The position numbers were made by a program, and so were the translations under genes. From Enterobacteria phage GiZh: a stretch of DNA of 64,000 nucleotides. The notes under the pieces were generated by a model, which saw only the letters and a list, made by a program, of their open reading frames with translations, was not told where the DNA came from and did no database searches. Every line of letters begins with the position of its first letter. The first letter of the stretch is position 1. Location: the sequence record NC_054903.1. The stretch is one strand, 5' to 3'. This document shows, one piece after another, positions 7,361-56,175 of the stretch.

Positions 7361-8516
7361 TTAACTGCTCGAGGTCAGTTTCTAAATCAGCAGCTGATTT
7401 ACTTTTACTTTCTGGAGATTTAAATTTTTCAACCTTTGAGTTAATCAATTCATCAACTTCAGCTTCAACAATTTCATTACTATCAATAGCACCTAACTGA
7501 TAAGCACGTTTAATAGCATCTCGGAATGGTTGATGCTTAAATAAAGGACCCCAGAATGTGGTGCAGTTGGTATCTTTTGCACGCCAAGATTTTTCTTCGC
7601 GAATCATCTCACCGGTTTCTTCATCAAGAAATTCACGAGCATACCAACCATTTTTAGGTTTTACCACGAATCCTAATTCTAGAGCCATATCTAACAATCC
7701 AGAATAAGGATCGATACCGCCGTCAAATTTAACATCAATAAAGAATTTACTTTTTTCTTTAACGGTACGAGATTTTTCTACATTTAGAACAAATTGATAC
7801 CCCTGAAGATCAGAACCATCTTTAATCTGGCGTTTACCGATAATGAATACAGTATCAGCCGAATACATTACGCCTGTACCACCTGTCATCACGGTTTTAC
7901 TAAACATTTCAATTGTTTCAATTGTATGGTTAACCGCAACACATGGAATATTTTTAATGCTAAAATAAGGAGTAACAATACGGAATAATGACTTCAGTGA
8001 TTTAGCACGAGTCATATCTGCCACAGATTTTTCATTCAAGGCATCTTCCGTTTCTTTCTTAGAAGCCATATTACCGATTGAGTCGATGAATACAATAACC
8101 TTTTCACCACGCTCAATAGCTTCAAGCTGATTCACCATATCAATTTTCAGCTGTTCAACTGACTGGATTGGCGTATGAATTACTCGTTCCGGGTCAACTC
8201 CCATGGATCGCAAATAAGCTGGAGTAATACCAAATTCGCTATCATAGAATAGACAAACCGCGTCAGGATATTTGTTCAAATACGCCGCAACCATAGTCAA
8301 AGACATATTTGATTTAAAGTGTTTAGAAGGACCTGCAAAAATAGTTAAACCAGACTGCATGCCGCCATCAATCGCACCAGAAATAGCAATATTAAGCATT
8401 GGAATTTTTGTACGAATTACATCCTTTTCATTAAAGAATTTAGATGTAGTCAGTTCAGCAGTCATTTTAGAAGTGGAAGCTTTAATCAAACGGGATTTTA
8501 AATCTGCAATAGACAT
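7335..8516 (-). CDS. uvsX: recombinase UvsX (RecA/Rad51 family)
   Basis: 393 aa; ATG verified; Walker A GPSKHFKS; near-identical to recalled T4 UvsX over most of its length. Confidence 0.95.
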   Translation of the reverse strand: MSIADLKSRLIKASTSKMTAELTTSKFFNEKDVIRTKIPMLNIAISGAIDGGMQSGLTIFAGPSKHFKSNMSLTMVAAYLNKYPDAVCLFYDSEFGITPAYLRSMGVDPERVIHTPIQSVEQLKIDMVNQLEAIERGEKVIVFIDSIGNMASKKETEDALNEKSVADMTRAKSLKSLFRIVTPYFSIKNIPCVAVNHTIETIEMFSKTVMTGGTGVMYSADTVFIIGKRQIKDGSDLQGYQFVLNVEKSRTVKEKSKFFIDVKFDGGIDPYSGLLDMALELGFVVKPKNGWYAREFLDEETGEMIREEKSWRAKDTNCTTFWGPLFKHQPFRDAIKRAYQLGAIDSNEIVEAEVDELINSKVEKFKSPESKSKSAADLETDLEQLSDMEEFNE

Positions 8517-8593
8517 TCATTTTTTCCATAGGCATCATTATATTTTCCTCACTGGTTAAAGATAGAGTAATTATAACACAATAAATTTAGGCA

Positions 8594-9436
8594 TTAATCA
8601 ACTGCTATTGGATGAATAGCATTAAACTTATGAAATGCTTCTGATTTTTCTTTACGCGAAACACACATGCGAAGAACCTTTAGTGGTTCATCTTCTTCAC
8701 CCAACGATTTTCGTTTTTCAATATTAGAAGTTTTCCAACGAGCTTGCTCTGGAAACTCTCTATTGATTTGCTCAAGCGCTCTATTATGTTTAGAATTACT
8801 GCGAATTGAACTGCACCCGCCAGGAGCTTGTGCTTTTCCAGATACAACCAGATATTTGAACAAGGCCAAATGCGGATAACCTTGATTAATTAAATTGAGA
8901 AATGCATACATATCTTCGCACAAATCAATTTTTCCATACCCAATTTGTTCTGTCGTAAGTTTTCCAAGGTCATACCATGTATTCGTGAATCCATATGAAT
9001 TTTCACGATAATTACCCCAAGATGAAGTAATTTTAAAAATAGGTAGACGAGCATGGCCATGATAATACCCACAATCCATGGCATCCTCAACATATTGAAT
9101 CAATTCATAGAACTGTTCACGAGTCAATTGATTGACTTTATCCACACAACGACGATCATCTCTTTTTCGCATTGAACTCATACGAATAGTAGTATCATCG
9201 TCAATCATCCAGATTCGTTGACCTGCATACATATCAGTAATTGCTTTACGAGTGCCGGCAATTCCGTTTACATCATCAGGAATAGTTACAATTTTAGCTC
9301 TAGACCCGTAAGCGTCATAATAAGCTTTTTCTTCGTGTTCACGCACTACAATATGGGGTTCATAATCAGTCGGAAACATATCAAGGGCAGAAACTGCCCC
9401 TACACGTTGATAGCTCGGAATTACGAATTGAATCAT
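8594..9436 (-). CDS. putative glycosyltransferase (occupies the T4 segA/beta-gt position)
   Basis: 280 aa from verified ATG 9436-9434 (ATGA overlap with gene 42 stop); DxD-like IDDDTT motif; does not resemble recalled T4 beta-gt. Confidence 0.45.
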   Translation of the reverse strand: MIQFVIPSYQRVGAVSALDMFPTDYEPHIVVREHEEKAYYDAYGSRAKIVTIPDDVNGIAGTRKAITDMYAGQRIWMIDDDTTIRMSSMRKRDDRRCVDKVNQLTREQFYELIQYVEDAMDCGYYHGHARLPIFKITSSWGNYRENSYGFTNTWYDLGKLTTEQIGYGKIDLCEDMYAFLNLINQGYPHLALFKYLVVSGKAQAPGGCSSIRSNSKHNRALEQINREFPEQARWKTSNIEKRKSLGEEDEPLKVLRMCVSRKEKSEAFHKFNAIHPIAVD

Positions 9437-10173
9437 TTCCACTCACCGTTATAATCTTTTTTCACAATATGAGTTTCGCCAGTATTCCACCAATGATCAA
9501 CCAAGTAAAAATGACGAGAATATACATGAAGACTTCCAACATTCCATATAATAGAACCTGCTTTATACTGACGAGTTGAATCGCCTGCATTCAAATCAGA
9601 TACTAATTTATCTAATACGTATTTTTGCCATGCATAATCATTACGGAATCCGAAGACCACGTCATTTGAGCGCATGCTTACTACTGCATTGACTTTCTTA
9701 TCACGAATCAGGTACTGTACTGTATTAGTACACATGAAATCTGACATACCATCTTTATTGTAGTCAAATTGCATGGATGGACGAGTATAAATCATGATAC
9801 CACGTCGAGAATCAGGATTTTGACCAAGTTCAGCTAAACACATATCATACTGGGCATAGTTATCTTCTGACCAAATAGCCCAACCATAATTCGAGTTAAT
9901 TTCGCCTTTAGAAGATGCTACCTGCTGCCAAATCTTTGGTGTTTCACCTGGAATATCTTTAACAAACAAGCTCTTAGATTTATACCATTCAAGTTCACGC
10001 TGAATGTATTCATCATTAAGAGCGCCAAAAATAAACGGTTCATCTGCTACAAATGATGCGCCAATAATTTCAATAGTTTTAACACCAGTTTTATCAACTA
10101 CGAAATCTTTTTCCTTTAATGCAAGCCCCAAATGAAGACGGATTTCTTCAACTGTCATAGAGTCACTAATCAT
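9433..10173 (-). CDS. 42: dCMP hydroxymethylase gp42
   Basis: 246 aa; MISDSMTVEEIRLHLGLALKEKDFVVDKTG...; ATG verified. Confidence 0.9.
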   Translation of the reverse strand: MISDSMTVEEIRLHLGLALKEKDFVVDKTGVKTIEIIGASFVADEPFIFGALNDEYIQRELEWYKSKSLFVKDIPGETPKIWQQVASSKGEINSNYGWAIWSEDNYAQYDMCLAELGQNPDSRRGIMIYTRPSMQFDYNKDGMSDFMCTNTVQYLIRDKKVNAVVSMRSNDVVFGFRNDYAWQKYVLDKLVSDLNAGDSTRQYKAGSIIWNVGSLHVYSRHFYLVDHWWNTGETHIVKKDYNGEWK

Positions 10174-16342: not shown

Positions 16343-17029
16343 TTAAAAATCGTGGGTAGAATCAGCTTCAAGAGCTACTACATAATTCGCATGTTCACCT
16401 TCAAATTTAGCAGCACCTTGTTTACCTTTTGCCCAGAGCAGAAGTTTATAATTTCCTGGTTGCATTTTCATATTTGCCATATTGATAATGAAATTAAATG
16501 TATTTTCACCATCATAATCACCAAGAGTCAAAGAATATTTAACACGAGTCAAAGCAGAATCTTCTACTTTATTAAAACCGTTAATTACGATTTTACCTTC
16601 TTTTACCGTGATAGCAATTGTATCAATTTGCAGACCACGAGATACACGCAACAGTTGTTGAAGGTCTTCAGCTTTAATTTCAGTAACAACAGATGCTACC
16701 GGGAATGGAATTGGTTTATTAGGAGCAACTACTGTACTCGGATCGGCTGCTGGCCAAAAAATTGTTGAACGAGCATCAGCAATTTTAATATTTCCATCTT
16801 CTGACTGGGAAATTTCTGCATCATCATTAACTAGAGACAGAATACCAAGAAAACCGTTCAAATCGTAAATCGCTACATCAAAATCAATAGTGTCAGAAAT
16901 ATTTGCTTCTGCATAAGTTGTACCATTAACTGCGCGAGTCATAATAAATTGACCTGATTTAAGCATAATGCCAGAGTTAATAGTAGCGAAATTTTTCAAA
17001 ATATTCAGTGTGTCTTTAGATAATTTCAT
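16343..17029 (-). CDS. 45: sliding clamp gp45
   Basis: 228 aa; MKLSKDTLNILKNFATINSGIMLKSGQFIMTRAVNGTTYAEANISD...; ATG verified. Confidence 0.95.
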   Translation of the reverse strand: MKLSKDTLNILKNFATINSGIMLKSGQFIMTRAVNGTTYAEANISDTIDFDVAIYDLNGFLGILSLVNDDAEISQSEDGNIKIADARSTIFWPAADPSTVVAPNKPIPFPVASVVTEIKAEDLQQLLRVSRGLQIDTIAITVKEGKIVINGFNKVEDSALTRVKYSLTLGDYDGENTFNFIINMANMKMQPGNYKLLLWAKGKQGAAKFEGEHANYVVALEADSTHDF

Positions 17030-17913
17030 TTCAATTTCCTATTTACATAATAGTTAGACCAGGACCGTACAGCACCCTGATAAGATTCGTCGTTAAACCC
17101 ATTAGCTACTGCAATTTTACGAAATTTATTATAACTTGGTTTTCCGTAAGCATGCCATAAAGATTTTAATTCATCTTCATGTTCAATCCAAGTTCCTCTA
17201 GCTTTAGATTTTCTAAATTTTGATTTGAATTCCGGTAAATTATTTCTAACAGTTGCTTGAATTGAAGCTCTCTGTCTTCTTTCAGCATTATTCCATAATT
17301 CTTTTTGAGATTTAGAAATTTTTGATCTTACACTTTCTGAATTCATTATATCACTAAACTTTTTAGCATAACTACAATCAAGATATTTCAATTTCATCTT
17401 ATTTGAGAGTTTAAGCTTTTTCTCATCGGTCCAGTGATTCTTCATTGAATTAGATATTTTGTATTTTACTTCAGAACTATGTTTGTAACCTTTACGAATA
17501 CCGACATACTCAGGCGTAATTTCAGATTGCGAAAGCTTTACAATTTTTCCAGTTAAAACATTTTTATATGTTCCATATCCTTTAGCACCAATTAAAGTAT
17601 TTTCATCTGCGTATGCTTTATTAAAATATTTTATATTACTCTTTGCTTTAACTTTTAATTGAAAAAATCTCTCCAATTTTCTTGGATCTAATATAGTTTC
17701 AGCTAAAATTTTGACGGTATATTTAGTGGTTTTAATAAGTTCAAAATATTCATCGCTATAACTCGATGACACGCTTCCAGTATAAATCTTTCCAGCTGAA
17801 TCAATTATATTTGTTCCATCGAAAATTGCGTTAATTTTTGAACCTATATAATAACACGGAAAAATATTTTTAGCTTCCCGCTCTGGAAAGCTAATAAGAT
17901 ATACTAAATTCAT
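17026..17913 (-). mobile_element. freestanding GIY-YIG-like homing endonuclease gene (between rpbA and 45)
   Basis: 295 aa; N-terminal VYLISFP-(10)-YYIGSK (GIY-(X10)-YIG pattern); Lys-rich C-terminal half with NUMOD-like repeats; no gene sits here in recalled T4 order. Confidence 0.55.
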
Positions 17914-20682: not shown

Positions 20683-21698
20683 TGTGTTGCCTCTACATAT
20701 AGCTGATTTGCATATTGAATAAGTGCTTCGCGATCAGAATCAGTGATGTCTGGAATTGCATTAATGTATTCTTCCATCAATGTCTGAAGAGATTGAACTT
20801 CAACTTCTTCACTGTCATCTGACTCAACAGAGTTATCAATCTTTGACACAACTCGTAATGAATGCACAACTTTTTCTAGTTCAGATTCGAACTTCGTTAG
20901 ATTTTTGTCTACTTCAGTTACTATAACACGTACTGATAGATTTGTAAAATCTTTATAGTCAATTTTTCCTTTAAATGGATAATGAATTCTACGATGCCAT
21001 GTAGTATTGTTTGGAATAAATTCCATTCGTTCTGTTTCTGTATCAAACATCCAGAACCCGCGAGGGTCATTCTCGTCACCTGCAGTTAGTGTCCATGGTG
21101 TCCCAATATATCTGACGTTAGCAGCCTCAGAAATAGTATGGAAGTGACCAGACCACACTTCCTTATAAGTCTTAAGGAAATCAGGTTCAAGACCGTGAGA
21201 TTTCATTCCTTTATAAAAATAAAATCCGTTCAGTTCCCAGTGACCAACACAAAAAGAAGCAGAAGAAGTTTTTATGTGCTCGAGAATTTCACCAGTATTT
21301 TCTTCACACATCCAAGGAATTAAATCAATTAAACATCCGTCAAAATCTACTGTAGTAGGCTTATCATATACTTTAACATTAGGATATTTAGCCAAAAGCT
21401 CAGTAGAGGCATTTGGATGCATTACATTTTTGTAGTGGAGATCGTGATTTCCTACAATAGTATGTAATGTGATTCCAGCATCATCAAGCATTTGAACTAT
21501 TTCACGAGCAAACTCCATAGTTTTATGCGTGATTGCTTTTCGCACATCAAAAATATCACCGTATTGAATCCAGGTAGTAATTCCATTTTTCTTAGAATAT
21601 TCTATCGCTTGTTTAATTCCATCAATTTGAATACCGCGAATCCACTCATCATCAGCTTTAACGCCTAAATGCCAATCACCCAAGTTTAGTATTTTCAT
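20679..21698 (-). CDS. 47: recombination endonuclease subunit gp47 (Mre11/SbcD-like)
   Basis: 339 aa; phosphoesterase motifs GDWHLG, GDIFD, GNHD; ATG verified. Confidence 0.95.
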   Translation of the reverse strand: MKILNLGDWHLGVKADDEWIRGIQIDGIKQAIEYSKKNGITTWIQYGDIFDVRKAITHKTMEFAREIVQMLDDAGITLHTIVGNHDLHYKNVMHPNASTELLAKYPNVKVYDKPTTVDFDGCLIDLIPWMCEENTGEILEHIKTSSASFCVGHWELNGFYFYKGMKSHGLEPDFLKTYKEVWSGHFHTISEAANVRYIGTPWTLTAGDENDPRGFWMFDTETERMEFIPNNTTWHRRIHYPFKGKIDYKDFTNLSVRVIVTEVDKNLTKFESELEKVVHSLRVVSKIDNSVESDDSEEVEVQSLQTLMEEYINAIPDITDSDREALIQYANQLYVEATQ

Positions 21699-22299
21699 GG
21701 TGTCTTTTCCATCCTAATTTAGCTGCTTTTGAAACCAGTTCTTTAATTTTTCCTTTTGTCCATTCAGGACCAGGAGGTTCATGACATAACATTTGCTTAA
21801 CTCCGTTATTATACCATTTTTTACCTTTATTATGTGATGAAGCTTTAAATTTATTTGACCTTCCTTTTACATAACCTTCTGGAATATAAGGTAAAAATGC
21901 AGATTTTCCTGTTAATGGATCATGTGAATGTATATTTCCTTTACAATTATGAGAACCATATAATGGATGATTTTTTCCTTTAATATCTCTTCCAAATGAA
22001 CCTTTTGGAGCAGCATATGACATATTAAAGAATAATGGATTTTTAACTGCATCATGCAATCGTTGATAATATAACTCGCATTTAATAGCTTCTTCACGCG
22101 TATCAAATTCAGCTAAAATGCATGAATCAAATAAGTGAGGATTATCTGAAAGCTCTTTATTATAAATTTTCTTATACTTTTTAGATAAAACTGAACCATG
22201 ATATCCAGCTAAATGCCTATCTAAAGACGTAGATCCAATATAAAAAGGAGGAAGTTTATCTCCACTATATATTGTTAAATAAGTTATATATTTTTTCAT
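21676..22299 (-). mobile_element. freestanding GIY-YIG-like homing endonuclease gene (between 47 and a-gt)
   Basis: 207 aa; YLTIYSGDKLPPFYIGSTS, then R/H (DRHLAGYHG), E (REEAIKCE), N (KNPLFFN); basic Gly/Lys-rich C-terminus; ATG verified. Confidence 0.55.
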
Positions 22300-22477: not shown

Positions 22478-23678
22478 ATTTTGTAATAATGTCAAACTGT
22501 TCTTTAAAGCAGAAGCTTGAATCTTGGTGCTGATACAAAAATTCATATGCTTTTTCTCGCTCACGGTCATAAAGAGCTCGGTCAGATGACAGTTCTTTAA
22601 TACGTTCAAATGTTGATTCCATATCATTTTCATCAAACCAAATGATACCGCTATCATGCGAGGTCAAAGGAGTATTATCAACACGGAATTTTAAATTTTC
22701 GCCAGTAGATTTCCAAAATACCGGAATTGTTCCACATGCACCAAGCTCGAGATGAGTATATTCTAAAGAGCGCTGTAGATATTTTTTATCCAACTTACTC
22801 AACTGATAACCAAAACCGGATTTACTCATACGTTCAAGCATTTCGCTATTTACATAACGGTCAAGAATTTGCGTTGGCAAATTAGGAGCAATTTTAATTT
22901 GGTCTACTTGATGAAGACGATAATACTCGTATGGAATTCCTTTTTCTTTAATAGGAATGAACGCTGGAGAACGTTCCAGACCTTCCATAATAGTACTTAG
23001 TCCTGCAGGTTTAAGATGTTTTTCATGAAAATCAAACATCTGATAAAAACCTTTCCATGTAGTCGTACGACCAATCCAACGGTTGATATTCATGTTAATT
23101 TCAGAAACATCTTTCCAGTAGGTTGATCGAACCTTCGCAATATCCATAGGAGGCTGAAAGTTATATACTGTCGGTGCTTCTTCAATATCATCAAACAGAG
23201 AAACAGTTTCTGGATACCACTCTTTCATCAGAACTTTATTAAAATCACCATTATCAGAATGGCTAAAAATAACATCAGCTCGACGAACAGTTTCTTCTAA
23301 TCCCAAATTTCGACGCAAAGAAAGAGAAGAATGGTCATGCTGATAAACTACAACACGAACAGAAGGTTTAATGTTATCAATAATTTTTTTATAGTTATTA
23401 ATAGTGTCTTCTTCAACCGAAGTAGCAGGAACTGAATTGATAATTAGAATATCACAATCATTTACCAGCTTAAGTGTTTTATCGTATTCTTTTGCCAATA
23501 AAACCGGAATTGAAAATGATTTATAATCATGCGCGCAATTACGAGTAAATGATTTATCTTTAGCATAAACCAAAGTTACTTCATGACCATTTTTAATAAA
23601 CCAATCACGTTGCTCGAGTGAGAATTTTGTTACACCACAACCTTCAAGACCTCGAGCCATAAAAATACATACTTTCAT
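22476..23678 (-). CDS. agt: DNA alpha-glucosyltransferase
   Basis: 400 aa; MKVCIFMARGLEGCGVTKFSLEQRDWFIKNGHEVTLVYAKDKSF... matches recalled T4 a-gt; ATG verified. Confidence 0.9.
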   Translation of the reverse strand: MKVCIFMARGLEGCGVTKFSLEQRDWFIKNGHEVTLVYAKDKSFTRNCAHDYKSFSIPVLLAKEYDKTLKLVNDCDILIINSVPATSVEEDTINNYKKIIDNIKPSVRVVVYQHDHSSLSLRRNLGLEETVRRADVIFSHSDNGDFNKVLMKEWYPETVSLFDDIEEAPTVYNFQPPMDIAKVRSTYWKDVSEINMNINRWIGRTTTWKGFYQMFDFHEKHLKPAGLSTIMEGLERSPAFIPIKEKGIPYEYYRLHQVDQIKIAPNLPTQILDRYVNSEMLERMSKSGFGYQLSKLDKKYLQRSLEYTHLELGACGTIPVFWKSTGENLKFRVDNTPLTSHDSGIIWFDENDMESTFERIKELSSDRALYDREREKAYEFLYQHQDSSFCFKEQFDIITK

Positions 23679-23702
23679 TTAATATCCTCATTGTTTTGGT
23701 TT

Positions 23703-27719: not shown

Positions 27720-28190
27720 TTAATCATGTTTCCACACCCCATCGGTATTTGACCAAAGTCGCTGATTATCTGATCCTCGCCACAGCTTTTTGGTCGGAAG
27801 ATTTTTCTCATACTTCCCATCAATAATAACATCAACATATTTAAGCATTTCTAGTTGTTTAATATCTTCAAACTTATATCCTGTCCACAACCAAATGCTT
27901 TTACTGGGATAAAGATTTTTTACTGTTTGAACGATGCAATGAATAACATCTCGGTTATCAGGATAGAGAGGGTCTCCTCCAGTTATAGTTAATCCTTCTA
28001 TATAATCATTATTCAAACATTCAATTAATTGCTCTAGTGTTTCACCAGTGAATGGAATACCATTTCTAGCATTCCATGTTGATTTATTATAACACCCTTC
28101 ACATTTATGCAAACAACCTGTAACGAAAAGAACGACCCTGCAACCAGGGCCATTCACAAAATCACAGGGATAAAATCTATCGTAATTCAT
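27720..28190 (-). CDS. nrdG: anaerobic ribonucleotide reductase activating protein NrdG (radical SAM)
   Basis: 156 aa; N-terminal Cys cluster CDFVNGPGCRVVLFVTGCLHKCEGCYN; overlaps nrdD stop. Confidence 0.9.
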   Translation of the reverse strand: MNYDRFYPCDFVNGPGCRVVLFVTGCLHKCEGCYNKSTWNARNGIPFTGETLEQLIECLNNDYIEGLTITGGDPLYPDNRDVIHCIVQTVKNLYPSKSIWLWTGYKFEDIKQLEMLKYVDVIIDGKYEKNLPTKKLWRGSDNQRLWSNTDGVWKHD

Positions 28191-30004
28191 TGGTGTTTAA
28201 CCCTATGCATGATTTCTTTATTTTTACCGAGATTAAATCCGCGCTCGTTCGGATTTCCCAAATAACCACATGTTCTTCTTATGGTATTCATCTTTTTAGG
28301 ATCAGTTTCTCCACAAATAGAACAAACAAATCCGTTTTCAGTAGGAGTCATTTCATGGGTACTTCCACATGTAAAACATTTATCTACTGGCATATTAACA
28401 CCAAAATAATCTAAATGTTGTGCAGCATAATCCCATACGGCCTCAAGACCTTTTAAGTTATTTTTCATATCAGGAAGTTCAACATAAGAAATGTGACCAC
28501 CTGTCGCAATGAAATGATATGGCGCTTCACGAGAAATCTTTTCAAACGGAGTAATATTTTCTTCTACTGAAACATGGAAACTGTTAGTGTACCAGCCTTT
28601 ATCAGTAACATCTTTTACACTTCCATATTTTTCTGTATCAAGTTTACAGAAGCGATAACAAAGGTTTTCAGCAGGAGTCGAATATAAACTAAAAGCAAAT
28701 CCAGTTCTTTCAGTCCACTGTTTAAGATGAGCATTCATTTTAGTTAAAATTTCTCGTCCAATATCACGACCGACAAGAATATTCAATTCGTGAATACCAA
28801 TGTATCCTAAAGACACTGAACTTCTACCGTTTTTAAATAACTCAATTATGTCGTCATCAGGTTTAAGACGAACCCCGAATGCACCTTCTTGGTAAAGAAT
28901 AGGAGCAACAGTAGCTTTAACTCCTTTTAAGGAACTAATTCTACACATCAAAGCTTCAAAACACAGATCCATTCGTTCATTGAATAATTCAACAAATTTC
29001 TGTTCATTGAACTGTGTTCCAATATAAGAATCTAACGCGATGCGAGGAAGATTCAGTGTTACAACACCAAGATTATTACGTCCATCAAGAATTTCATTAC
29101 CAGTCGAATCTTTCCATACGCTCAAGAAACTACGGCAGCCCATTGGAGAAACCGGAACTGAAGAACCAGTAATAGCTTTATTATTCTTAGCTGAAATAAT
29201 ATCAGGATACATTCTTTTGCTTGCACATTCTAGAGCAAGCTGTTTAATATCATAGTTCGGATCGTCTTTATAAAGATTAACACCTTCTTCAACGAACATA
29301 ACAAGCTTAGGGAAAATAGGAGTTATCCCATCACGACCGAGACCTTTAATACGATTTTTCAGAATTGCTTTCTGAATCATTCGTTCAGTCCAGTCAGTTC
29401 CTGTACCAAATGTAATTGTTACAAAAGGTGTTTGTCCGTTTGAACTAAAGAGAGTATTTACTTCATATTCATAAGCTTGGAATGCATCGTATACGTCTTT
29501 TTCTGTTTTAGATTGAGCATAATTCAACGCATCAGCGATTTGCCATTTTTCTGCATCCTCAATATGTTTTGCATAGGTGCGTTTAACATAAGGAGAAAGT
29601 ACTTTATCTACATTCGCAAAAGTCGTTCCGCCATATTGATGGGAAGCAACTTGCGCAGTAATTTGTGCCATAATTGCAGTAGCAACGCCAATTGATTTAG
29701 GAGTTTCAATCTGTGCATTACCAAGCTTAAATCCGTTCTCAAGCATTCCTTTTAAATCTACTAAACAGCAATTAGTAAATGGAAGAGCAGGGGAATAATC
29801 AATATCATGGAAATGAATAATTCCGCTTTCATGCGCTTTCATAATAAAAGACGGGACCATATTTTTGGCAATGTGTTTAGACACAATACCAGCCATAAGG
29901 TCCCGTTGAGTTGGAAAAACACGAGAATCTTTATTAGCATTCTCGTTTAAAAGGTCTTTATTAGTTTTATGAATCAATCCTTCAATTTCTTTTTCAATTG
30001 TCAT
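28187..30004 (-). CDS. nrdD: anaerobic ribonucleoside-triphosphate reductase NrdD (glycyl radical enzyme)
   Basis: 605 aa uninterrupted; C-terminal glycyl radical motif RTCGYLGNP and Zn-ribbon CFTCGSTHE...CSICG. Confidence 0.95.
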   Translation of the reverse strand: MTIEKEIEGLIHKTNKDLLNENANKDSRVFPTQRDLMAGIVSKHIAKNMVPSFIMKAHESGIIHFHDIDYSPALPFTNCCLVDLKGMLENGFKLGNAQIETPKSIGVATAIMAQITAQVASHQYGGTTFANVDKVLSPYVKRTYAKHIEDAEKWQIADALNYAQSKTEKDVYDAFQAYEYEVNTLFSSNGQTPFVTITFGTGTDWTERMIQKAILKNRIKGLGRDGITPIFPKLVMFVEEGVNLYKDDPNYDIKQLALECASKRMYPDIISAKNNKAITGSSVPVSPMGCRSFLSVWKDSTGNEILDGRNNLGVVTLNLPRIALDSYIGTQFNEQKFVELFNERMDLCFEALMCRISSLKGVKATVAPILYQEGAFGVRLKPDDDIIELFKNGRSSVSLGYIGIHELNILVGRDIGREILTKMNAHLKQWTERTGFAFSLYSTPAENLCYRFCKLDTEKYGSVKDVTDKGWYTNSFHVSVEENITPFEKISREAPYHFIATGGHISYVELPDMKNNLKGLEAVWDYAAQHLDYFGVNMPVDKCFTCGSTHEMTPTENGFVCSICGETDPKKMNTIRRTCGYLGNPNERGFNLGKNKEIMHRVKHQ

Positions 30005-30474
30005 TTTAAACTCTTTCTAAGCTGCTTCTTAAATGAAGCTATTAATTGTGTTTTAGTGTCAGATTCATTATATTCAAATCCTCTTTGAAGCATCTCAGCC
30101 ATCATTTCCTCTTTTCCTAAACGAGAAAATTCCTTTGATTTATCTCCAACGAAGTTAGGGTGAATATTATTTTGGGTGTAATCGGATTTTAAATAAGTAA
30201 GTAAATTTTCTAGCCATTCAAGATAATCAACGCCTTGTCCCTTTAAGCCAGAACGATTAAATTTATGCTTCATTTGACCTTCCGCAGCATTGCAGAGATT
30301 ACAGAGCAATCCACGTACCTTTCCTGCTTTTGGTCCATTTAATTCATGGTCATGGTCAAGGTGATTAGCTTGAACATCAGGATTTAGTTCTCGTTGGCAA
30401 ATTAAGCATTTACCGTTTTGTGCATTATAAAATTTTTGTTTTTCTTCTTTATATAATTTGCCAGTCAATAACAT
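30001..30474 (-). CDS. 49: endonuclease VII (Holliday junction resolvase) gp49
   Basis: 157 aa; MLLTGKLYKEEKQKFYNAQNGKCLICQ...HLDHDHELNG matches recalled T4 gp49. Confidence 0.95.
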   Translation of the reverse strand: MLLTGKLYKEEKQKFYNAQNGKCLICQRELNPDVQANHLDHDHELNGPKAGKVRGLLCNLCNAAEGQMKHKFNRSGLKGQGVDYLEWLENLLTYLKSDYTQNNIHPNFVGDKSKEFSRLGKEEMMAEMLQRGFEYNESDTKTQLIASFKKQLRKSLK

Positions 30475-31414: not shown

Positions 31415-31597
31415 TTTTCACCAATTAATTTCGCAATTTATTAAGTTCTTCATCATCAATCCAGGATTCTAGTCCTGATGGCAGGGCACATTCAATTTCC
31501 CAAAGAAGTTCTTCAATTTTCTGAAGACGTTCTAGTTCTTCGGCTGGAATAGCAACCATTGACGGAGCTCGTGATACATTAATATCGTAAATCATAT

Positions 31598-31813
31598 TTA
31601 CCCCAATTTAACCATACAATCGCCGTATTTCCACTTAGAAATAGACTTTTCACCATTAGAATAATAAACTTCGAGTTTAGCACGATTATTTTTAATTTGA
31701 ATAACCTTTGCTGTCATCAAAGTTCCATACCCATAATAAACTGCAACTTCATCACCTACATATACCGCGCTTCCACGATAATCATGGATATAATCAGTTC
31801 CTTCGAGCATCAT
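31598..31813 (-). CDS. hypothetical protein
   Basis: 71-aa ORF, ATGA overlap with nrdC stop. Confidence 0.45.
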   Translation of the reverse strand: MMLEGTDYIHDYRGSAVYVGDEVAVYYGYGTLMTAKVIQIKNNRAKLEVYYSNGEKSISKWKYGDCMVKLG

Positions 31814-40120: not shown

Positions 40121-40578
40121 TCAGCCTTATATTCAATAACAGGACATACTTTAGCTTTACGCGCTTTTAAAAATTCGACGATAACCGATTTCTTGGGTTG
40201 AATAGGAGGTAAACCTTTATACGCCCTATCAATATTTTCTACGTGTAAAGCATAATCCTTTTTCCATTTATAATCTTTATATTTTTCACGCAAATGTGCA
40301 GGAATAACAAATGAACCGATAATAAGTAAAACAACCAAAAGCGCAAGTATAAATGCCGATGGAAGAAGAGTCCATAAACTACCGAAAATAAGCCAACGTT
40401 GTAGGCTTTCTGCACAAATAATTGTTAGCCCTACGAGTATAGCACATCCAAAAATAGAAACGAAAAATGTAGGAATGGCAATAGACCAAAAATATGCGCA
40501 TAGTGTCTTAGGTCGTTGCCATTCATCGTTAAACAATTTGAATAATTTATAATGCCAAGAGTTTTCATTAATAATCAT
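40117..40578 (-). CDS. membrane protein
   Basis: 153 aa, two or three predicted TM helices. Confidence 0.5.
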   Translation of the reverse strand: MIINENSWHYKLFKLFNDEWQRPKTLCAYFWSIAIPTFFVSIFGCAILVGLTIICAESLQRWLIFGSLWTLLPSAFILALLVVLLIIGSFVIPAHLREKYKDYKWKKDYALHVENIDRAYKGLPPIQPKKSVIVEFLKARKAKVCPVIEYKAE

Positions 40579-40580
40579 AA

Positions 40581-41102
40581 TTATCCTTTCATTGAAGGTG
40601 TAACAGTTGTTAAATACTTAATCATAGCCTCAGCTTCTGATTTTGATAGTGAAATTTCTTCACCGTTTTGGCGAATAGAAACAAAATCTGGATGACGATC
40701 ACCACCAGCTTTTAAAACACACATATAAGTATCAGCTTCGCCTTCAATATTTGAAATGATTGAAGCAGTTCCACACGAATGTGGTTTTTGATAAATCAAT
40801 ACAGCTTTTCTTCCACCATTTGACTGTTCATAGGCTTTTAATACATCAAACAAATCAGTTCTTTTATCAATAGCTAAAATGTTATTTTCATCTTCAATGT
40901 TAAATCCTTCGGATACTTCATAAAGCGTTACCCATAAATCACCAATGTCAATAACAGCATTTACTTTTCCACGGCTTTCAAGAGTATGACAAATTTTCTT
41001 GATTTCGTCATAACTCATTTTAATAATATCATCTCCTTGAATAAGAAAGATGTCATTTTTAAATTCAACACGAATTAAACCACTTTCACTTGAAATAAAC
41101 AT
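40581..41102 (-). CDS. hypothetical protein (paralog of 41109-41480)
   Basis: 173 aa; C-terminus KSEAEAMIKYLTTVTPSMKG parallels the neighbour's KDEAIALKTYLDSVIPTMISK. Confidence 0.5.
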   Translation of the reverse strand: MFISSESGLIRVEFKNDIFLIQGDDIIKMSYDEIKKICHTLESRGKVNAVIDIGDLWVTLYEVSEGFNIEDENNILAIDKRTDLFDVLKAYEQSNGGRKAVLIYQKPHSCGTASIISNIEGEADTYMCVLKAGGDRHPDFVSIRQNGEEISLSKSEAEAMIKYLTTVTPSMKG

Positions 41103-42850: not shown

Positions 42851-43237
42851 TTATTCGAGGGAAAGAAGATACTTACTCTGGTAAAACATTCCAGTAATAT
42901 CATCTATCGTGCTTTGGATGGCTGGAGGCATTTCTTTATAAATGCTGTTAGATTGGTCTAGTATGTGATCAATCATTTTAATTGTGTCGGTAGGAAGTTT
43001 ACTGGCATCTGGAATTGAAGGCGTGTATTTTCTACCAGAATACCCCAAATATTGCTCACCAAATTTATCAATCAAATCTGGCAACTCGGAGAAAATAAAA
43101 TCGTATGCTTTGTGTCTAGCATAACTTTTAGTTTCAAAATGTGCAGAATGAAAATAAGCTTGTGCAGCCATTAATAAACCTAAGTATTCATCTGCCTTTG
43201 AAGGTTTTCCACTTTGTGAAAAGTCGCTGAATTTCAT
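42851..43237 (-). CDS. hypothetical protein
   Basis: 128-aa ORF, stop just upstream of terminator. Confidence 0.5.
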
Positions 43238-43527
43238 TCAGTCTCCAATTTAATGTTCATAATTCTAGCGTATGATTGTGCCATCTCCGCGCCTCGTTCT
43301 ATACATTCAAAATCAGAAGAGCACGGGTCATTTTTATAGGTCGTTCTCATAAAACTATAGAATTGTTCAGACGATTCTACGCTTTTATTTTCAAAAAGTG
43401 TATAAACGTGCCTAATACCAGATTCCATAAATTTATCAAAATGAGGATCGACATTCGCTTCAATCGATGGAGATAAAACAAATGACAATCCTAGCATGGC
43501 AAAAAGTGCCGTTGCTTTTAAGGCCAT
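43234..43527 (-). CDS. secreted protein
   Basis: 97 aa with signal peptide MALKATALFAMLGLSFVLSPSIEA. Confidence 0.5.
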   Translation of the reverse strand: MALKATALFAMLGLSFVLSPSIEANVDPHFDKFMESGIRHVYTLFENKSVESSEQFYSFMRTTYKNDPCSSDFECIERGAEMAQSYARIMNIKLETE

Positions 43528-43539
43528 AAAGGCCTCCTA

Positions 43540-43752
43540 TCATTTTTGTCCTGTATTTACTTTATGCCGATGCACGGCCTTAACTTTATCAAGGTATTTT
43601 TCAAAATTTCGCAATCTAGTATAGTCTGCCGGAGATTGGTTGAGTGATACTTCTCGACGCAAAGCTGAAATGATATTTCCAACTTCCCTACGAATTTCAT
43701 CTAATTGAAGAACAGTAAGATTGCGAAGTTGCTTTTCAGTTAATTGTAGCAT
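43540..43752 (-). CDS. hypothetical protein
   Basis: 70-aa basic ORF. Confidence 0.45.
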
Positions 43753-43794
43753 ATATACCCCTTTAGTTAGATAAACCTATTTATAACTTTTGCA

Positions 43795-44376
43795 CTAACC
43801 GAGCTTTTTAGTTAATTCATTCCAATGTTTTCTGCACAAAGAAACATAAATTTCATCACCAATACAGATTTGATTACCTTCTTTAACTGGTGTTCCATCT
43901 TCCATTAATCGAGCTGTCATAATCGCTTTTTTGCCGCAATGACAAACTGCCTTTAGTTCAATAAGTTTATCTGCAATCGCTAAAAGTTCTTTAGAACCTT
44001 CAAACAATTTTCCAGCGAAATCAGTCCTTAATCCATAAGCCATAACAGGAACATTATATGTATCAACAATTCGGCTCAATTGATGCACCTGTTCAGTTTT
44101 TAAAAACTGAGCTTCATCTACAAATACGCAATGAATATCTTTTTGTGCTTCAGCCCATTTATAGAACTCGAAAATATCCATATCATCTGTAATAATATTC
44201 GCTTCCTGTTTAATTCCAATGCGAGAAACAACTTCACAGACAGAATCGCGAGTATCAATAGCAGGCTTAAGAACTAATACACTCATTCCACGTTCTTTAT
44301 AATTATGTGCAGCAGTCAAAAGAGAAGCAGATTTTCCAGCATTCATTGCTGCATAAGTAAAAATTAAACTCGCCAT
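43795..44376 (-). CDS. tk: thymidine kinase
   Basis: 193 aa; Walker A AAMNAGKS; C-terminal Zn motif CHCGKK...C; ATG verified. Confidence 0.9.
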   Translation of the reverse strand: MASLIFTYAAMNAGKSASLLTAAHNYKERGMSVLVLKPAIDTRDSVCEVVSRIGIKQEANIITDDMDIFEFYKWAEAQKDIHCVFVDEAQFLKTEQVHQLSRIVDTYNVPVMAYGLRTDFAGKLFEGSKELLAIADKLIELKAVCHCGKKAIMTARLMEDGTPVKEGNQICIGDEIYVSLCRKHWNELTKKLG

Positions 44377-44385
44377 ATCACCTTC

Positions 44386-44571
44386 TTAAAGCGTATTCAC
44401 ATAAGCTATTAATTCATTTTCTTTCTTATCAAACCGATCAGCAAATTCTTCCTGCTGTTCTGGAGATAGCGGGCCGTATTCATCATAAAAGGTGTTTGCT
44501 TCTATATGCTCATCTAGAAGTTCATGGATAAGCTCAAACAATTTATCTTTTTGTTCTTTGCTTAGACTCAC
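44386..44571 (-). CDS. hypothetical protein
   Basis: 61-aa acidic ORF upstream of tk. Confidence 0.45.
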   Translation of the reverse strand: MSLSKEQKDKLFELIHELLDEHIEANTFYDEYGPLSPEQQEEFADRFDKKENELIAYVNTL

Positions 44572-44740
44572 AGTATGTCAATCCCCAAAAGTTTTAAAAT
44601 GACTCGTTTCTGATTCATAACCGCTACGATTGAATGACCGTTGGGGTCTTTTTGACCTGATCCAATTATAAATCCTTTTTGCGCAGAAAGTTCAATCAAA
44701 ACATCAAGTTCACGTAATAATTGATATTTTAAATCATCAT

Positions 44741-44968
44741 TCATTTTGGTTTACCTTCTTTAACGAAATCAGGATAAGGATAAAATCCTGAATAAAATCC
44801 TTCACCTTTATGATTGATGCATCCTTTATTAGAACAATAGCACCAATAATCGAAATCACAAGCCATTTCATCGTTGCATAAAGCAAAAACAACCGGCCAC
44901 TTACACTTTTCACAGTGGGCATTTTTAAGAATACTAGTTTGGCTCATAACCATGTAACCTTTAAGCAA
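44741..44968 (-). CDS. Cys-rich small protein (putative zinc-binding)
   Basis: 75 aa with CEKC...C..C and C..C.C...C..H patterns; competing overlapping frame 44737-44922 not preferred. Confidence 0.4.
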   Translation of the reverse strand: MLKGYMVMSQTSILKNAHCEKCKWPVVFALCNDEMACDFDYWCYCSNKGCINHKGEGFYSGFYPYPDFVKEGKPK

Positions 44969-45156
44969 TATTCTTCTACATGTTGTTTACGACCTTTCTT
45001 ATCAATAAAGGTATATTCAACGAATGTTCCAATGTAGTCTTTATCTACATCATGTGGACTATTAATTGGACATTTAGTACGGCAAATGCGTTCCCATTGA
45101 CGAATAATTACTGCTTTGTTTTTAGGATCAAACGGATGCGGGTAATGTACTTTCAT
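44944..45156 (-). CDS. hypothetical protein
   Basis: 70-aa ORF. Confidence 0.4.
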   Translation of the reverse strand: MKVHYPHPFDPKNKAVIIRQWERICRTKCPINSPHDVDKDYIGTFVEYTFIDKKGRKQHVEEYCLKVTWL

Positions 45157-45607
45157 AATCCACCACTATTAAATCAATATCAGGAGTAAACATGTCGATT
45201 AATTTAGAAACCTTATCCCAATCGCCGCCAGCAATACCACAACCTATGCGTGGAATGTAAATTACCGGTTTAAACAAAAGGGTTTCTGCCTGTAGATTTA
45301 ATTCTATCATGCAGTTTACTAAAGCACCATAATCAAGATTAGGACCTGGTTCGTATTGCGTATACAAGTTATAACATATGCCAAAACCATTAGGTTTATG
45401 TTTAAAAACAATAGACATATCGCCTAATTTATCACGAGAACCGTACTCAGTAGTGGTTTTATCTATTTCTAAAATTTTGGGATAGGCTCTTGCTAATTGA
45501 CCCGCTACACCTGAACCCATAGTATGAAAACAATTGCACCCGTGCGCAATAATATTACCTTGAAGAAATAGGGCGACAATATCGCCCTTGATATATTTTG
45601 CAATCAT
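45128..45607 (-). CDS. macro domain protein (ADP-ribose binding/processing)
   Basis: 159 aa; Gly-rich motifs NCFHTMGSGVAGQL and IGCGIAGGDW typical of macro domains. Confidence 0.6.
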   Translation of the reverse strand: MIAKYIKGDIVALFLQGNIIAHGCNCFHTMGSGVAGQLARAYPKILEIDKTTTEYGSRDKLGDMSIVFKHKPNGFGICYNLYTQYEPGPNLDYGALVNCMIELNLQAETLLFKPVIYIPRIGCGIAGGDWDKVSKLIDMFTPDIDLIVVDYESTLPASV

Positions 45608-45945
45608 CTAGTACTCAATCCTCGATTATAAGAATCTACCAAACGGTCAACCATTGAATGACAAGCGGCTTTATCTTTCTCCTCCGCAACTGAACATTCT
45701 AAGGTATTCCACTTTTTAGCATATCGTTTTAATAATGTATCGTTTTTGTATCTACTTGATTTATCTCTTTCTCCGTCTTTATATGCATATATTAATTTCT
45801 GCGCAAATTCAGCTTGGCATGCTTTATTTTTCCCGCAATAATCCGCTGCAGTACGGTTTACATACTCTCTAATTTCAGTATATGATGTATCTGCTAACGC
45901 AGAAAATGAAATTAATCCTATACATAAAACCAAAATTTTAGTCAT
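45604..45945 (-). CDS. secreted Cys-containing protein
   Basis: 113 aa; signal peptide MTKILVLCIGLISFSALA. Confidence 0.5.
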   Translation of the reverse strand: MTKILVLCIGLISFSALADTSYTEIREYVNRTAADYCGKNKACQAEFAQKLIYAYKDGERDKSSRYKNDTLLKRYAKKWNTLECSVAEEKDKAACHSMVDRLVDSYNRGLSTR

Positions 45946-46483
45946 TTACTATTTCCAAAAGTTTATTATTTTTAAGGTAATTAGCCTTTTCTAGGACTTC
46001 AGAAGCATATTTAGAACCTGCTTTAACATTCCATCCCGAATTATAAGAGGATATTGCTTTTCTTATATCGCCCTTATGTATATTTAACCAATAAGAAAGT
46101 TCAATGTACGCCCAGGAAGCTGAATTGGATCGTTTATTCAACATTCTTTTTATTTCAGCATCGGTCATATTATAACCAAGTTCCTTAACTCTTGCTCGCA
46201 TAGTAGGCAAATAATTTTGGAACATTCCATAAGCGTGATGCTTTGGTTTAGATTTTAAATTAACTCCGCCAGAGCTTTCTTGCCATAAAATAGCAGCCAT
46301 TATATGACCTAATCCGCTCTTGTGGATATTTTTGTGTGTTTTATATTTTCCATCCTTAGAAAACTGTTCCCCGAATTGATACGCGTAACGCATGTTATCG
46401 AGTTGGACATTACTGAAAGTATGCTCGGAGCTATGTGCCATCATTGAAATGGCCAATAGACCAGCGAGTAGTGCTTTTCTCAT
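45938..46483 (-). CDS. putative secreted lytic transglycosylase (SLT-like)
   Basis: 181 aa; signal peptide MRKALLAGLLAISMMAHS; catalytic-type ILWQESSGG and downstream YGMFQ. Confidence 0.5.
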   Translation of the reverse strand: MRKALLAGLLAISMMAHSSEHTFSNVQLDNMRYAYQFGEQFSKDGKYKTHKNIHKSGLGHIMAAILWQESSGGVNLKSKPKHHAYGMFQNYLPTMRARVKELGYNMTDAEIKRMLNKRSNSASWAYIELSYWLNIHKGDIRKAISSYNSGWNVKAGSKYASEVLEKANYLKNNKLLEIVND

Positions 46484-55344: not shown

Positions 55345-55420
55345 TGGTCGAGGCAGTAGGGATCGAACCTACGACCTAGGACTTAGAAGGTCCTTGCTCT
55401 TCCTTCTGAGCTATGCCTCG
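55345..55420 (-). tRNA. tRNA-Arg (anticodon UCU)
   Basis: cloverleaf folded by hand: acceptor CGAGGCA/TGCCTCG, anticodon loop CTTCTAA, T-arm GGTTCGATCC, 3' ACCA. Confidence 0.85.
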
Positions 55421-55424
55421 GATT

Positions 55425-55499
55425 TGGCGGACGTGATAGGATTCGAACCTATAACCAATCGCTTAACAGGCGATCGCTCTGCCATTGAGCTACACATCC
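55425..55499 (-). tRNA. tRNA-Asn (anticodon GUU)
   Basis: acceptor GGATGTG/CACGTCC, anticodon loop CTGTTAA, T-arm GGTTCGAATCC, 3' GCCA. Confidence 0.85.
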
Positions 55500-55503
55500 A
55501 AAT

Positions 55504-55590
55504 TGGTGGGGAGTGATGGAGTCGAACCACCCGAGTCGCAATGACAATGGATTTACAGTCCACACCGCTACCTCTACGGGATAACTCCCC
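55504..55590 (-). tRNA. tRNA-Tyr (anticodon GUA)
   Basis: acceptor GGGGAGT/ACTCCCC, anticodon loop CTGTAAA, long variable arm, T-arm GGTTCGACTCC, 3' ACCA. Confidence 0.85.
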
Positions 55591-55602
55591 TAATTCATAA
55601 TT

Positions 55603-55677
55603 TGGTGGCCCTGGGTGGAATTGAACCACCATCTGGCGATTATGAGTCGCTTGCTTGAACCTTCCAGCTACAGGGCC
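55603..55677 (-). tRNA. tRNA with anticodon CAU (Ile2 lysidine-type or Met)
   Basis: acceptor GGCCCTG/CAGGGCC, anticodon loop CTCATAA, T-arm GGTTCAATTCC, 3' ACCA. Confidence 0.8.
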
Positions 55678-55678
55678 T

Positions 55679-55754
55679 TGGTGCTGATTGACGGAATCGA
55701 ACCGCCGACCTTCTCATTACAAGTGAGTTGCTCTACCTACTGAGCTAAATCAGC
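55679..55754 (-). tRNA. tRNA-Thr (anticodon UGU)
   Basis: acceptor GCTGATT/AATCAGC, anticodon loop CTTGTAA, T-arm GGTTCGATTCC, 3' ACCA. Confidence 0.85.
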
Positions 55755-55759
55755 AAAAC

Positions 55760-55849
55760 TGGCGGAGGCGATAGGATTTGAACCTATGAGTCGCCGGAGC
55801 GACTGCCGGTTTTCAAGACCGGTGCATTAAACCACTCTGCCACGCCTCC
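55760..55849 (-). tRNA. tRNA-Ser (anticodon UGA)
   Basis: acceptor GGAGGCG/CGCCTCC, anticodon loop CTTGAAA, long variable arm, T-arm GGTTCAAATCC, 3' GCCA. Confidence 0.85.
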
Positions 55850-55851
55850 AG

Positions 55852-55925
55852 TCTCCATACAAGGATTTGAACCTTGGACCTCCTGATCCCAAATCAGGCG
55901 CTCTACCAAACTGAGCTACACGGAG
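55852..55925 (-). tRNA. tRNA-Pro (anticodon UGG)
   Basis: anticodon loop TTTGGGA, T-arm GGTTCAAATCC; CCA not encoded. Confidence 0.8.
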
Positions 55926-55935
55926 TAAATTAAAT

Positions 55936-56009
<74 letters not shown>

Positions 56010-56013
56010 AAAT

Positions 56014-56101
56014 TTGGTGCGAGAAGTGGGACTCGAACCCACAAGGAAATCATTCCGCAGCATTTTAAGTGCTGTACCTTTACCAATTTGACCATTCTCG
56101 C
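56014..56101 (-). tRNA. tRNA-Leu (anticodon UAA)
   Basis: acceptor GCGAGAA/TTCTCGC, anticodon loop CTTAAAA, long variable arm, T-arm GGTTCGAGTCC, 3' ACCA. Confidence 0.85.
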
Positions 56102-56102
56102 G

Positions 56103-56175
56103 CTGGGAATAAAGGACTCGAACCTTTGCATCCTGGAATCAAAATCCAGTGCCTTACCAACTTGGCTAATTCCCA
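56103..56175 (-). tRNA. tRNA-Gln (anticodon UUG)
   Basis: acceptor TGGGAAT/ATTCCCA, anticodon loop TTTTGAT, T-arm GGTTCGAGTCC; CCA not encoded. Confidence 0.85.

Follow-up and report, generated by a model that had tools for sequence, protein, structure and literature searches.

The nrdD gene of phage T4 (NC_000866) is annotated as a two-piece join (43535..46385) which spans 2,851 bp and has I-TevII (44836..45612) inside it. Read out at its junctions, the T4 gene is composed of a 538-nt first exon with GAGT at its end, a 1,033-nt intron closing with ATTG, and a 1,280-nt second exon that starts with ATGAAG. The interruption of T4 nrdD by a group I intron, from which the original prediction for the DNA analysed here had started, was evident both in this annotation and in an Rfam scan of the T4 locus, in which Intron_gpI was detected at 105 bits. 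That T-even phages differ in which of the three T4 introns they carry was already recognised in the late 1980s (cited in PMC2988022), and the co-conversion of flanking exons is also described there. Alleles of nrdD lacking the intron are known as well.

The counterpart of this gene was analysed in a stretch of 64,000 nucleotides from Enterobacteria phage GiZh (NC_054903.1), referred to below as the window. Positions without further indication are those of the window.

The uninterrupted nrdD gene of phage GiZh

The catalytic subunit of class III (anaerobic) ribonucleotide reductase, nrdD, was encoded on the reverse strand (28187..30004) by an uninterrupted, ATG-started open reading frame of 605 codons plus stop. 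The product matched the Pfam families NRDD (PF13597; E 2e-171, residues 21-604) and Gly_radical (E 1e-25), as well as the solved structure of T4 NrdD (PDB 1h78) over residues 1-605. The glycyl-radical motif RRTCGYLG was read at residues 576-583 (28256..28279, reverse strand), with Gly580 as the radical glycine, and the cysteines of the C-terminal zinc site were C543, C546, C561 and C564 (28313..28378, reverse strand). C79, C290 and N311 (T4 numbering) were all found; we take the numbering of the active-site cysteines and of the four-cysteine zinc site to be that of the T4 NrdD structure papers. The single frame closing on a glycyl radical motif, as originally predicted, was thus recovered in full.

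The gene was tightly packed between its neighbours. Downstream, nrdG (27720..28190, reverse strand), which codes for a radical-SAM activase (Fer4_12, E 5e-48, and Radical_SAM matches), overlapped the nrdD stop with its start (ATGA, 28187-28190); upstream, the stop of gene 49 (endonuclease VII; 30001..30474, reverse strand) overlapped the nrdD start (ATGA, 30001-30004). NrdD is activated by the adjacent NrdG protein. The family profile, the structure match, the glycyl-radical motif, the cysteines and the adjacent activase all agreed with membership of class III.

Alignment of the window gene to the ligated T4 exons was gapless (1818 vs. 1818 nt), and the 47 substitutions (97.4% identity) alter a single amino acid (V65F); both proteins have 605 residues and the exons are collinear. 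In the BLAST comparison of the window with T4, the match broke at the intron, position 29469 being paired with T4 45850 and position 29466 with T4 44814. Together with the junction read-out, these breakpoints placed the empty insertion site of the T4 group I intron at 29466..29467 (reverse strand), with the last nucleotide of exon 1 (T) at 29467 and the first of exon 2 (A) at 29466. The precise intron-less junction expected from an alignment with the T4 exons was therefore located between these two nucleotides.

A missing segment or a cryptic intron remnant, either of which would have contradicted the original prediction, was looked for: the gapless alignment left no missing segment, frameshift or remnant at 29466/29467, and the Rfam scan of the whole 64-kb window (gathering thresholds), with the T4 locus as its control, returned ten tRNAs only and no group I intron (RF00028). 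When I-TevII, MobC and further T4 endonucleases were used as tblastn queries, no match was obtained in the window, whereas the a-gt control was found. The features of an intron-split T4-type nrdD, that is, an intron after nucleotide 538 of the coding sequence and the I-TevII coding sequence, were both absent. T4 differs from the window in this 1,033-nt intron, in a seven-site silent haplotype beside it and in the presence of mobC between nrdD and nrdG.

The same data bear on whether 28187..30004 could be a chance or degenerate frame, or hide a short cryptic intervening sequence. Nothing was found that spoke for this: the Pfam and PDB matches span the full length of the frame, its product is as long as T4 NrdD and differs from it in a single amino acid, its catalytic and radical residues are complete, and the Rfam intron scan gave no match. 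The probability left to this explanation is negligible, and it was considered refuted by the Pfam and PDB matches, the T4 exon alignment and the Rfam scan.

Mobile endonuclease genes and other differences from T4

Both gene overlaps of the window correspond to places that are occupied in other phages. The overlap of nrdD and nrdG is the empty site at which T4 has mobC, and T4, PST, EC128, RPN226 and fPS-2 all have an endonuclease gene at this place; the overlap of gene 49 and nrdD is the empty site at which G8, fPS-2 and Manna have an extra endonuclease gene. These gene arrangements mark gene 49-nrdD-nrdG as a hotspot of mobile endonucleases, with three invasion sites in T-even phages (the I-TevII intron within nrdD and the boundaries of nrdD with nrdG and with gene 49), all of them empty in the window.

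The extra gene at the gene 49-nrdD boundary is about 820 nt long in G8, fPS-2 and Manna (851-1672, 851-1672 and 891-1672 of our loci L003, L004 and L006, respectively). In these three phages the first ~190 nt of nrdD were strongly diverged (MSLEKDV... vs. MTIEKEI...), which suggests co-conversion from a distant donor. In T4 (locus L001, record positions 43518-43538 and 42896-42916), mobC opens with a copy of nrdG codons 1-7, ATGAATTATGACAGAATCTAT (MNYDRIY); the insertion of mobC thus duplicated the 5' end of nrdG and preserved the ATGA overlap with nrdD.

Across the whole window, comparison with T4 and tblastn revealed no counterpart of T4 segF, segA, mobB, mobC, I-TevII, mobD or segB. The positions of segF, mobB and mobD (1356-1772, 23669-23694 and 40121-41084, respectively) were taken by unrelated small reading frames in the case of segF and mobD (DUF7422, a y05I-like protein and a membrane protein), and by a clean join in the case of mobB. 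The interval of T4 segB was reduced to 268 nt and held extra tRNA sequence: ten contiguous tRNA genes (55348-56175, reverse strand) were present, vs. eight annotated in T4, and segB was not among them.

Two endonuclease-like reading frames missing from T4 were detected at other places. A 295-amino-acid frame (17026-17913, reverse strand), flanked by the T4 gene 45 and rpbA counterparts, matched PHROG 655 (“homing endonuclease”, E 4e-33) and is probably a free-standing homing endonuclease gene. A 207-amino-acid frame (21676-22299, reverse strand), flanked by the T4 gene 47 and a-gt counterparts, showed a weak Pfam GIY-YIG match, below the cut-off (E 3e-4), and a strong match to PHROG 10820 (E 3e-94; family label “HNH endonuclease”); it resembles a free-standing endonuclease of the seg kind.

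Further differences from T4 were related to DNA modification and to small genes. T4 segA and b-gt had no counterpart at 8504-9451 (reverse strand), where they were replaced by a 282-amino-acid frame (8594-9442) matching the beta-glucosyl-HMC-alpha-glucosyltransferase family PHROG 842 (E 1e-89), which suggests DNA glucosylation of T2/T6 style, not of T4 style. The T4 dam gene (DNA adenine methyltransferase, T4 16846-17625) was missing at 2293-2314, where its flanks were joined within ~20 nt, and tblastn of the whole window with T4 Dam gave no match. T4 gene 49.3 was replaced by two unrelated small frames of 56 and 71 amino acids (31421-31809, reverse strand).

Distribution of the intron and of the homing-site haplotype

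The 3.1-kb stretch around nrdD matched 1,037 phage records. The best match and closest sequenced genome was Shigella phage Sf22 (MF158045), with 99.0% identity over the 3.1 kb of gene 49-nrdD-nrdG (98.7% within nrdD); gene order and empty sites are shared, and only minor substitutions separate it from the window. Many Tequatrovirus genomes followed at ~97%, T2 among them. In T2 (LC348380, AY262136) nrdD is likewise uninterrupted (1,818 nt), with nrdG directly after it, no mobC, and gene 49 directly abutting. T2 and the window do not differ at any position from -10 to +20 of the insertion site, and diverge by ~2.4% of nucleotides in the rest of nrdD.

The 1,033-nt T4 intron was present in 25 records of the phage collection, compared to ~1,040 records with the same nrdD, and is limited to 2-4% of records. 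Roughly half of the 25 were T4 isolates; the others were PST, RB55, RB59, G8, RPN226, fPS-2, U5, EC128 and Manna. With so few carriers, the intron-less nrdD is the default state among T4-like relatives, and the case of GiZh is ordinary.

The counterpart of the I-TevII homing site extends from -10 to +20 at 29447..29476 (reverse strand) and is of the T2 type, with GCTTATGAAT before and ATGAAGTAAATACTCTCTTT after the insertion site. Twenty-three of its 30 positions were identical to T4. The seven differences (-2, +8, +11, +14, +15, +17 and +20) were all synonymous, the codons over the site being GAG TAT GAA GTG AAC ACG TTA TTC in T4 and GAA TAT GAA GTA AAT ACT CTC TTT in the window, and they formed the densest cluster of the gene, matched in 63 of 100,000 permutations. 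The extent of the I-TevII site and its cut position were reportedly established by Bell-Pedersen in 1990 and Loizos in 1996; we take the cut to lie at +13/+15 downstream of the insertion site, where the differences at +14 and +15 fall.

The haplotype was compared among 34 nrdD sequences: 8 intron-bearing phages, 6 intron-less GenBank phages and 20 usable loci from IMG/VR, of which one has the intron. Each of the 8 intron-bearing phages examined had G, G, C, G, T, A and C at -2, +8, +11, +14, +15, +17 and +20, respectively. Twelve close intron-less sequences were tabulated, with Salmonella phage SG1 as the exception, and had exactly A, A, T, T, C, C and T (10 of 12) or differed from this at one site (2 of 12). 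Distant relatives (78% amino-acid identity) had the window state at +11, +14 and +15, which argues for this state being the older one. An operator-like sequence upstream of the I-TevII reading frame in the intron has TATGAATA in common with the window allele (A at -2) and is uninformative for +8 to +20.

Phage records were also searched with 40-mers spanning the exon junction, built so that a match could not be seeded by one exon half only. The window-type junction was found exactly in 485 records and with up to 2 mismatches in 54 more, while the exact T4-type junction was found in no intron-less record. A near-T4-type junction without intron was restricted to SG1 (locus L011, 2511-2585) and Mosigvirus ESCO47 (locus L036, 1384-1458; A at -2). 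Like the window, these two phages have an intron-less nrdD of 1,818 nt, but with the intron-linked haplotype in exon 2 (G, C, G, T, A and C from +8 to +20). They may be the products of precise intron loss, or a lineage that kept the native, susceptible target of the intron.

Possible co-conversion, resistance or loss at the intron site

In the double-strand-break repair model of homing, donor sequence is always copied from the insertion site to the cut site, and usually slightly beyond. The seven silent differences are accordingly most readily explained as a co-conversion footprint in T4, that is, donor exon sequence brought in with the intron; since the haplotype matches the prediction of this model, the differences would belong to the T4-type, intron-linked allele and not to GiZh. 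Beyond about -17 to +29, the intron-bearing phages had differing, mosaic nrdD backgrounds: G8 resembled loci L017 and L018 in its 5' part, and fPS-2 resembled loci L014 and L016 in its 3' part. The nearest intron-less relative of the PST nrdD was T2, with a window-type site. An exact before/after pair, namely an intron-less twin of an intron-bearing nrdD, was not found among the sequences compared; the best pair was T2 vs. PST (97.2% over 600 nt), a match that is suggestive, not decisive.

The intron and its short tract occur in several nrdD backgrounds with intron-less relatives of the window-type site, which suggests that window-type alleles have been intron recipients; this could have come about by repeated homing with short conversion tracts. 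Cleavage of the T2-type site of the window by I-TevII is plausible, and GiZh would be a potential intron recipient in a mixed infection. Two considerations weigh against this: if the site were cut efficiently, the scarcity of the intron would have to come from something else, for instance infrequent co-infection or loss, and two of the seven differences lie on what we take to be the cut-site nucleotides. The original prediction that this phage would be a homing recipient was only partly supported: the exon junction is uninterrupted, and the site is of the T2 type with seven differences from T4, +14 and +15 included.

The opposite explanation is that the T2-type allele resists I-TevII through silent changes at or near the cut site, so that GiZh is no recipient and the spread of the allele accounts for the rare intron. 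The concentration of seven silent differences in 30 bp, two of them at +14 and +15, would be expected from such an allele, as would the lack of the exact T4-type junction in intron-less records (with the near-T4 type in two phages only) and the restriction of the intron to a few percent of records. The obligatory co-conversion between insertion and cut sites predicts an identical pattern, however, and several of the nrdD backgrounds with the intron have intron-less relatives of the window-type site. Moreover, GIY-YIG homing endonucleases are tolerant of many substitutions; in 2004, Sandegren and Sjoberg reportedly observed that T4 introns homed into intron-less T-even phages with variable efficiency. 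Resistance was therefore regarded as unlikely. It is correspondingly doubtful that the T2-type haplotype is a cleavage-resistant, “immune” allele which dominates natural Tequatrovirus populations and holds the nrdD intron to a few percent; if it were, the SG1 and ESCO47 alleles would be the sole truly susceptible targets.

Intron loss was also considered, GiZh nrdD having in this case once contained the intron and lost it precisely. Precise loss belongs to the accepted homing cycle, and the intron-less SG1 and ESCO47, with their intron-linked exon-2 haplotype, could be such cases. An allele arising by loss should nevertheless retain the intron-linked haplotype, whereas the window has the opposite state at all seven sites and shares its state at +11, +14 and +15 with distant relatives. 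Loss is very improbable for GiZh and was rejected, as the intron-linked haplotype is absent; SG1 and ESCO47 are better candidates for it, or for the original susceptible lineage.

The co-conversion reading was preferred over both. It is highly probable, taking all its parts jointly, that 28187..30004 is an ordinary nrdD, functional and intron-less, of a T4-like Tequatrovirus near Sf22 and T2, that it carries a T2-type allele from which T4 departs by co-conversion, and that GiZh is a potential recipient.

An intron-less nrdD alone matters little, as this is the standard state of T-even phages. The by-product of the analysis is a population view, over ~1,000 genomes, of a seven-site silent haplotype that tracks the intron, being present in 8 of 8 intron-bearing phages examined and in only two intron-less ones. 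In these sequences, the association of haplotype and intron reads as a clean natural footprint of co-conversion.
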